A DNA stretch of 64,000 nucleotides from Escherichia coli (GTDB lineage: Bacteria > Pseudomonadota > Gammaproteobacteria > Enterobacterales > Enterobacteriaceae). The position numbers were made by a program, and so were the translations under genes. The notes under the pieces were generated by a model that did no database searches, was not told the DNA's origin, and worked only from the letters and a program-made list of their open reading frames with translations. The stretch lies in NCBI RefSeq assembly GCF_044647545.1, contig NZ_CP172818.1. One strand, written 5' to 3'. Below, in pieces: positions 49,900-50,444 of the stretch (positions are counted from its first letter, which is position 1; each line of letters begins with the position of its first letter).

Positions 49900-49930
49900 A
49901 GCGCCACAAGGGCGCTTTAGTTTGTTTTCC
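49897..49930. terminator. Bidirectional intrinsic terminator downstream of soxR
   Basis: Hairpin aaagcgccacaagggcgcttt flanked by A-run upstream and T-rich run downstream. Confidence 0.7.
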
Positions 49931-50444
49931 GGTCTTTGTCTTTCTCTCTATCCCGCTGGTACACAGGAGGGTTTCCCCCGACGTCAACACACCTCATTCG
50001 AGCACGTGGTGGAGGTTCCGGTTGGTGTTGATGCTTTAATTGTATGTCACCGGCGTTTCTTCGCCAGTGTAAAAGTACACTTTTTAGCCGCAATATTTTT
50101 GTCATCTCAGACGATTTTTTATCGCAATCCTGAACGGTATACGGTTCGATAACGCTGCAATCTTGCGCATCGACGATAACGTTTGCGCATCAATTGCCTG
50201 GTTTTTCATCGTCAAGACAATAAAAGAGAAAAAAGCAGCAAACTTCGGTTGAAAAAGCCGCTATGATCGCCGGATAATCGTTTGCTTTTTTTACCACCCG
50301 TTTTGTATGCGCGGAGCTAAACGTTTGCTTTTTTGCGACGCACCAATTTGTCGCAAACCTGGAGCAGGAAGATAACGTTTCGCTGGCAGGGGATTGTCCG
50401 CCACGCATCTTGACGAAAATTAAACTCTCAGGGGATGTTTTCTT

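Follow-up and report, generated by a model that had tools for sequence, protein, structure and literature searches.

In the Escherichia coli DNA studied here (the window, a single stretch of 64,000 nucleotides), soxR and ghxP (yjcD) are separated by 545 bp (49900-50444) in which neither the listing of open reading frames nor the comparison with annotated records revealed a conserved ORF, and the non-coding gap of about 540 bp that the first-pass annotation had described 3' of soxR is thus borne out by measurement. The gap divides between the gene of a small RNA (sRNA), sraL, also named ryjA, and the region containing the ghxP promoter and its PurR operators (Table 1). Approximately a quarter of the gap is taken up by sraL, while the other ~410 bp constitute ghxP regulatory DNA; the sRNA gene is not confined to the gap, since its last 8 nt lie inside the soxR coding sequence. 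The two PGAP-annotated RefSeq records that were inspected (including NZ_CP033850.1) list only soxR and ghxP at this locus and omit sraL, unlike the record of K-12 MG1655, which does annotate the sRNA. Elsewhere in the window, the Rfam matches above the gathering score were a lysine riboswitch (7257-7453, minus strand), the STnc430 sRNA (9347-9496, minus strand) and three REP-derived naRNA4 elements (17022-17092, 21251-21321 and 55710-55781, plus strand).

Table 1. Coordinates of the features in and around the soxR-ghxP gap, as positions in the window
Feature	Position	Strand	Basis or remark
soxR CDS	49435-49899	+	ORF listing, name from annotated E. coli records
sraL / ryjA small RNA gene, 141 nt	49892-50032	-	+1 = 50032, 3' end = 49892; Rfam RF01408
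Terminator hairpin, 13-bp perfect stem, 5-nt loop	49893-49923	both	Ends SraL on the minus strand; probably ends the soxR transcript on the plus strand
Third hairpin (nt 65-82) and invariant purine-rich single strand AUAGAGNGAAAGACAAAGACCGG (nt 82-104)	49925-49968	-	3/6 hairpin pairs compensatory
5' domain closed by helix P1 (nt 2-8 / 43-49), with invariant loop AACCGGAACCUCC	49984-50031	-	4/7 P1 pairs compensatory, 50 orthologues
Predicted tig-pairing seed, sRNA nt 25-34 (CAC GUGCUCG)	49999-50008	-	Best local duplex with the K-12 tig leader
TAA extension (-6 to -4)	50036-50038	-	Directly after TACAAT; sigma-S-type feature
sraL -10 hexamer TACAAT (-12 to -7)	50039-50044	-	Read from sequence; sigma-S-type
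Weak -35 CTGGCG (-35 to -30), 17-bp spacer	50062-50067	-	Read from sequence
Conserved A/T-rich element ACAAAAATATTGCGGCTAAAAAG, ~-70 to -48 from sraL +1	50080-50102	-	Cross-genus consensus gc..aaaaattt.ggc.aaaaa
Distal PurR operator ACGATAACGTTTGCGC	50173-50188	.	Belongs to ghxP; identical to ChIP-chip motif
Proximal PurR-type box AGCTAAACGTTTGCTT	50315-50330	.	Belongs to ghxP; two mismatches to ACGNAAACGTTTGCNT
ghxP CDS (= yjcD)	50445-51794	+	ORF listing, name from annotated E. coli records

The identity of the sRNA follows from a Rfam covariance-model scan, in which the sraL family RF01408 matched the minus strand at 49892-50032 over model positions 1-142 of 142, with 153.3 bits (E = 3.6e-36) against a gathering score of 39 bits, and this was the top-ranked match in the scan of the whole window at gathering thresholds. 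When both strands of 49000-51000 were scanned against Rfam at a permissive threshold (E up to 1), the gap yielded no further RNA family; apart from sraL, the terminator read on the opposite strand was the sole match. In K-12 MG1655 (NC_000913.3), the ncRNA ryjA (b4459) is annotated at 4277926-4278066 on the minus strand with an 8-nt overlap with soxR, and alignment maps it base for base onto 49892-50032 of the window, the same 8-nt overlap included. The first-pass annotation had suspected ryjA on the minus strand between soxR and the downstream permease, and had named a Rfam scan of both strands as one way to check it; the full-length RF01408 match and the identical position of b4459 confirm the suspicion, and the scan gave the predicted result. 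Judged by its sequence, the feature is SraL/RyjA, an already known sRNA, and nothing unusual is seen in this copy.

Within E. coli, the sRNA is markedly more constant than the DNA in which it is embedded. Base-by-base alignment with K-12 revealed no difference in the 141 nt of the sRNA, while the same alignment showed 11 differences in 465 positions of soxR, 7 in 412 of the rest of the gap and 13 in 522 at the start of ghxP, the flanking sequence being approximately 2% divergent. Of 5426 complete E. coli genomes, 5420 contain the sRNA sequence, and in 5400 of these it is at least 99% identical, whereas the 581-bp stretch containing it reaches at least 99% identity in just 1545 of them. This indicates that the sRNA is far more tightly constrained than its flanks. 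Three of the 5432 sRNA matches in E. coli genomes are located on plasmids, and a few genomes carry the sRNA in two places or in truncated form (e.g. NZ_CM132948.1, with 79% coverage and two places).

Orthologues were retrieved independently of Rfam, by applying a two-anchor DNA pattern derived from the RNA to one-genome-per-species collections, which yielded 55 loci covering Escherichia, Salmonella, Citrobacter, Enterobacter, Klebsiella, Raoultella, Leclercia, Lelliottia, Cedecea, Trabulsiella, Atlantibacter and other genera. At 54 of the 55 loci, soxR is convergent on the 3' side of the sRNA; the 3' end of the sRNA overlaps the soxR stop codon or lies no more than 40 nt away from it in 47 of these 54, and in the other seven species the spacing is 48-511 bp and the RNA is equally conserved. 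The sole exception among the 55 is Citrobacter sedlakii NBRC 105722 (L035), where sraL and an intact terminator are found and no soxR match occurs in the 1.6 kb downstream. Enterobacterial soxR-sraL-ghxP loci also occur on two contigs with unexpected labels, 'MAG: Bacillota bacterium' (L026) and 'Chryseobacterium sp. 18061' (L054), the SoxR and GhxP of the former being 99 and 100% identical, respectively, to the proteins of the window; both contigs are probably mis-binned or contaminant.

To assess the structure of the RNA, 50 distinct orthologues, drawn from about 20 genera of Enterobacteriaceae, were aligned. The Rfam structure is paired in 95.9% of the alignment cells, as against 40-54% when the partners are slid by one to three columns. 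Compensatory double changes were found at eight pairs (four in P1, three in the third hairpin and one in the terminator), a number reached in none of 500 shuffles, and RNAalifold on its own recovers P1, the central hairpins and the terminator. The terminator pairing is kept in 97% of cells, its one compensatory change being from U-A to G-C, whereas the inner hairpin of the Rfam model (nt 31-40) is weakly supported, with 77% of cells paired and no compensatory change. Taken as a single sequence, the sRNA folds only modestly better than its shuffles (z = -1.9). The loop at nt 11-22 is invariant across the orthologues, but it lies inside the search pattern, both anchors of which had to match exactly, and the invariance of the anchors is thus in part a product of the search itself. 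The purine-rich stretch at nt 82-104 lies outside the pattern and still hardly varies among the genera; it may serve as an Hfq contact or a second seed. According to these results, the folded RNA comprises the P1-closed 5' domain, a pair of small central hairpins and the terminator, separated by invariant single strands.

The sRNA ends at a hairpin with arms at 49893-49905 and 49911-49923, which are 100% complementary over 13 bp; the hairpin starts inside the last soxR codons and overlaps the last 8 nt of that gene. It is highly stable as read from either strand (-26.1 kcal/mol, z = -5.4 on the plus strand; -23.8 kcal/mol, z = -5.6 on the minus strand), with none of 200 shuffles as stable in either case. 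On the minus strand, the 13-bp stem with its 6 G-C pairs is followed by a U-rich tail, which makes it a Rho-independent terminator at the 3' end of the sRNA, and it was on this strand only that the pattern scan called a terminator. On the plus strand, GTTTTCC, with no more than 4 T, comes after the complete 13-bp stem; a qualifying T-rich tail (TTTAGTTTGTTTT) results only when the stem is reduced to its 8-bp GC-rich core (AAAGCGCC/GGCGCTTT). It is nevertheless plausible from these features that the hairpin acts bidirectionally, and published work states that the SraL terminator overlaps that of soxR and is used in both directions (PMC2190706). A bidirectional terminator had been proposed at 49897-49930 by the first-pass annotation, with the sRNA ending at it: the hairpin is real and stable on both strands and the minus-strand sRNA, as delimited by the Rfam match and b4459, ends there, while its coordinates are shifted to 49893-49923 and its call by the scan is limited to one strand.

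The sraL promoter was placed by hand from the mapped +1 and then checked by cross-species conservation. The -10 hexamer reads TA[C/G]A[A/C]T in 46 of the 55 loci, TAA comes next in 39 and the -35 hexamer is CTGGC[A/G] in 32. A scan for sigma-70 consensus promoters did not call it, because the -35 matches at only 3 of 6 positions. A degenerate -35 is typical for sigma-S promoters, and a promoter that joins such a -35 to a good -10 with an A/T-rich extension has been described by Silva et al. as RpoS-type (PMC3753932); the sequence found here is consistent with sigma-S dependence. In Salmonella, SraL is roughly 500-fold lower in an rpoS mutant, a lacZ fusion is rpoS-dependent and the sraL promoter is enriched more than 100-fold in RpoS ChIP (PMC3753932), while for E. 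coli K-12 stationary-phase induction of RyjA has been found in two media and the sRNA is given as RpoS-regulated (PMC12266141). Further upstream, the conserved A/T-rich element contains small inverted-repeat arms and is kept across genera with or without a divergent glutathione S-transferase (GST) gene; an UP-like element, a transcription factor site and a leftover of the GST promoter are candidate explanations for it.

The GST gene just mentioned accounts for a difference in layout among the genera. In most genera of Enterobacteriaceae, it lies between sraL and ghxP (identified by Pfam GST_N/GST_C), and the gap then spans about 1.1-1.3 kb; an example is found at 2468-3136 (minus strand) of locus L052, and equivalent positions are occupied in about 30 loci. 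A GST gene upstream of sraL has likewise been described in the literature for Salmonella. The gene is absent, leaving 412-454 bp, in the Escherichia loci scanned, several Citrobacter loci (including C. werkmanii and C. youngae), one C. amalonaticus strain and Trabulsiella, so that ghxP is the direct neighbour of sraL in Escherichia, unlike in Salmonella and most other genera. The notion that the E. coli gap is a remnant of the GST gene was rejected, as tblastn gave no match in the gap, and the matches elsewhere in the window were at chance level only (E >= 0.6).

The part of the gap beyond sraL serves ghxP. The motif at 50173-50188 is identical to that under the PurR ChIP-chip peak 'ryjA/yjcD' (Cho et al. 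2011, PMC3159470), and, together with the proximal box, it is one of the only two matches with at most two mismatches to the 16-bp palindrome ACGNAAACGTTTGCNT in the entire 64 kb. The proximal box at 50315-50330 matches the consensus as well as the ChIP-mapped distal box does; it is absent from Table 1 of the same study (PMC3159470). Across 43 loci, the distal box is situated approximately 257 nt from the ghxP ATG in 39 and the proximal box approximately 114 nt from it in 37, whereas the distance of the boxes to sraL varies from 141-184 nt up to ~815-870 nt and more, because most genera carry the GST gene between sraL and ghxP. The boxes, being fixed with respect to the ghxP start codon and variable with respect to sraL, therefore belong to ghxP, and adenine- and PurR-dependent repression has been reported for yjcD (PMC3809563). 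The sole match to the sigma-70 consensus in the gap is TTGAAA-18-GATAAT at 50249-50278 on the plus strand. Overlapping the GATAAT of this site is a weaker copy, the third, of the AATCGTTTGC(T)n repeat (50273-50291), and the two together may represent the ghxP promoter with an operator.

What SraL does has been studied mainly in Salmonella and, to a lesser extent, in E. coli. In both organisms, an RNA of about 140 nt is detected only on entry into stationary phase (PMC2190706), and transcripts of this size have been reported from Northern blots and RNA-seq. In Salmonella, Hfq stabilizes SraL about 3-fold, and decay is determined mainly by poly(A) polymerase I (PAP I), with PNPase and the degradosome; in E. 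coli, Hfq co-immunoprecipitation gave no confirmation of SraL binding (PMC2190706). In an E. coli pcnB mutant, ryjA, which is polyadenylated, is among the most up-regulated transcripts (log2 +3.84; PMC5389530). Two mRNA targets have been described in Salmonella: SraL represses the tig (trigger factor) mRNA, the pairing being verified by compensatory mutation (PMC3753932), and it pairs with the rho leader, which prevents premature Rho-dependent termination (reviewed in PMC6582626, PMC12360218). A search of the literature found no mention of RyjA together with RIL-seq.

The complementarity of the E. coli sRNA to these targets was assessed with K-12 leader sequences, that of tig serving as a proxy for this strain. 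Whole-length RNAduplex predictions for tig (-65 kcal/mol) and rho (-62 kcal/mol) were no better than those for shuffled sRNA, 41 and 56% of which, respectively, were as good; being uninformative, they were replaced by local duplexes predicted in short windows. The best predicted local duplex, a short one, pairs sRNA nt 25-34 with positions -29 to -19 of K-12 tig (CGAGCAC-U-GUG) through 7 + 3 bp with a one-base bulge (-16.4 kcal/mol). This site is directly upstream of the GAGG Shine-Dalgarno sequence, in agreement with the interaction described in Salmonella (PMC3753932). The seed at nt 25-34 is not conserved in the Klebsiella and Raoultella orthologues, and tig may therefore not be the ancestral or the only target. 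For rho, sRNA nt 35-48 (window 49985-49998) are predicted to form 13 contiguous bp with positions -244 to -230 of the K-12 rho leader (L059; -16.2 kcal/mol), the strands being AAUGAGGUGUGUUG with AAACAUACCUUAUUA, and this duplex is a candidate for the reported SraL-rho interaction.

These observations can be combined into a model in which sraL would be transcribed from its own sigma-S-type promoter once RpoS accumulates, either in stationary phase or under osmotic stress, and in which the transcript would end at the strong intrinsic terminator that probably also serves soxR, the 3' end of which lies opposite. As in Salmonella, Hfq would stabilize the RNA, and polyadenylation of its 3' end by PAP I would mark it for degradation by PNPase and the degradosome. 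SraL would act by short, imperfect pairing with mRNA leaders: pairing just upstream of the tig Shine-Dalgarno sequence would lower trigger-factor expression, while pairing with the rho leader would prevent premature Rho-dependent termination and lead to more rho mRNA. By analogy with Salmonella, in which the regulation was shown, we infer that the same targets, tig and rho, are regulated in this E. coli strain. In this manner, both protein folding, by way of trigger factor, and the amount of Rho would become linked through SraL to the general stress sigma factor.

Alternative explanations of the conserved 141 nt differ considerably in what they demand of the data. If there were no functional sRNA at all, conservation would come only from the soxR terminator and from intergenic DNA that evolves neutrally, and the Rfam match would be a legacy annotation, a reading with which the omission of the gene from the PGAP-annotated records and a single-sequence fold z of only -1.9 could be reconciled; it is almost certainly wrong, as the 141 nt are far more conserved in E. 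coli than the adjoining coding and intergenic sequence, compensatory changes occur across genera in helices unrelated to the terminator, a conserved promoter stands at the right distance and transcripts of ~140 nt have been published for both E. coli and Salmonella. A dual-function RNA is hardly more credible. The sRNA does contain, from an AUG at nt 36, a frame of 26 codons (MRCVDVGGNPPVYQRDREKDKDRKTN) that ends at a UAA in the terminator stem and is part of a 62-aa ORF at 49917-50105 on the minus strand, but no Shine-Dalgarno sequence precedes it (GCUCGA-AUG), and the aligned start is ATG in 9 of 50 orthologues and CTG in 24. Moreover, in the rows of Klebsiella, Raoultella, Enterobacter and Salmonella the frame is closed by a stop 2-4 codons in, and even within Escherichia it is shifted by single-base indels, the stop being lost in Escherichia albertii (L004) and in one E. 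coli row (L012). A small protein was rejected on these grounds, neither start, frame nor stop being conserved in the 50 orthologues, a conclusion unchanged by the few alignment rows that were off by one column. Control of sraL by PurR, through an operator that lies ~141 nt upstream of its start and would repress or modulate the sRNA promoter, is suggested by the label of the ChIP-chip peak, ryjA/yjcD, and by the presence of its motif ACGATAACGTTTGCGC at 50173-50188. Such control is nevertheless very improbable and was rejected as the main reading: across the 43 loci the boxes follow the ghxP ATG and not sraL where the GST gene intervenes, a site at -141 to -156 is far from the usual PurR positions, of which 44% fall between -35 and -10 (PMC3159470), and the reported repression concerns yjcD (PMC3809563), not ryjA.

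The arrangement of the 3' ends raises a further alternative, namely a chiefly cis-acting, antisense role of SraL against soxR: with the two transcripts perfectly complementary over ~30-40 nt at their 3' ends, RNase III cleavage of the duplex or interference with termination would link the soxR mRNA level to sigma-S status. The 8-nt overlap with the soxR coding sequence, the presence of one and the same hairpin on both strands, the convergent soxR at all but one of the 55 loci, in most cases (47/54) overlapping or within 40 nt, and the suggestion, made in PMC2190706, that RNase III cleaves within the terminator speak for such a role. However, the complementary stretch consists almost entirely of the terminator stem, whose pairing with itself leaves it little free to pair with another RNA, and the RNA is conserved just as well in the 7 of 54 species in which it is spaced from soxR. 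The most conserved parts (nt 11-22, 51-66 and 82-104) lie outside the soxR overlap, which points to targets in trans, and trans targets have been verified by compensatory mutation, whereas the literature search found no reported effect on soxR. We thus regard a mainly cis-antisense function as unlikely; a cis role is a minor possibility, and one not exclusive of the trans role. A further reading is also conceivable: the shared terminator could couple 3'-end formation of the soxR mRNA, or its decay by RNase III, to sigma-S-driven SraL synthesis, and the A/T-rich element could add a second input to sraL. This is rather improbable, and, if true, the shared terminator would couple the superoxide sensor to stationary-phase status and would represent more than a saving of space.

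Taken together, the segment 49892-50032 on the minus strand is, with high confidence, the gene of SraL, a 141-nt trans-acting base-pairing RNA with a sigma-S-type promoter, a terminator probably shared with soxR and predicted pairing to mRNA leaders. The gap is confirmed to be explained by a described sRNA and by the ghxP promoter/PurR region, and nothing novel was found in it. The practical value of the result lies in annotation, as sraL is missing from two PGAP records though its sequence is present; the E. coli targets of SraL are proposed on the basis of Salmonella work.

SraL can be placed among several known regulators. SdsR is an Hfq-dependent, trans-acting, base-pairing sRNA with an intrinsic terminator. 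Like the RpoS-dependent sRNAs SdsR and GadY, with which it is listed (PMC12266141), RyjA is induced in stationary phase via sigma-S; its sequence and targets are unrelated to theirs. In comparison with those two, SraL has unusual reported targets, namely a ribosome-associated chaperone and the Rho leader, and polyadenylation dominates its decay. The mode proposed for SraL at the rho leader, in which pairing upstream of the ribosome-binding site blocks the loading of Rho, is the same as that proposed for DsrA, ArcZ and RprA at rpoS (PMC6582626, PMC12360218); these are different RNAs with different targets, and antitermination by SraL has been shown in Salmonella only. The closest counterpart is SraL/RyjA of K-12, from which the sRNA has no detectable sequence-level difference while the flanks of the strain differ by ~2%. 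With this reference (RF01408, b4459), the copy described here shares the locus, the strand, the boundaries, 141 of 141 bases, the terminator probably common with soxR, the sigma-S-type promoter and the 7 + 3-bp complementarity to tig.
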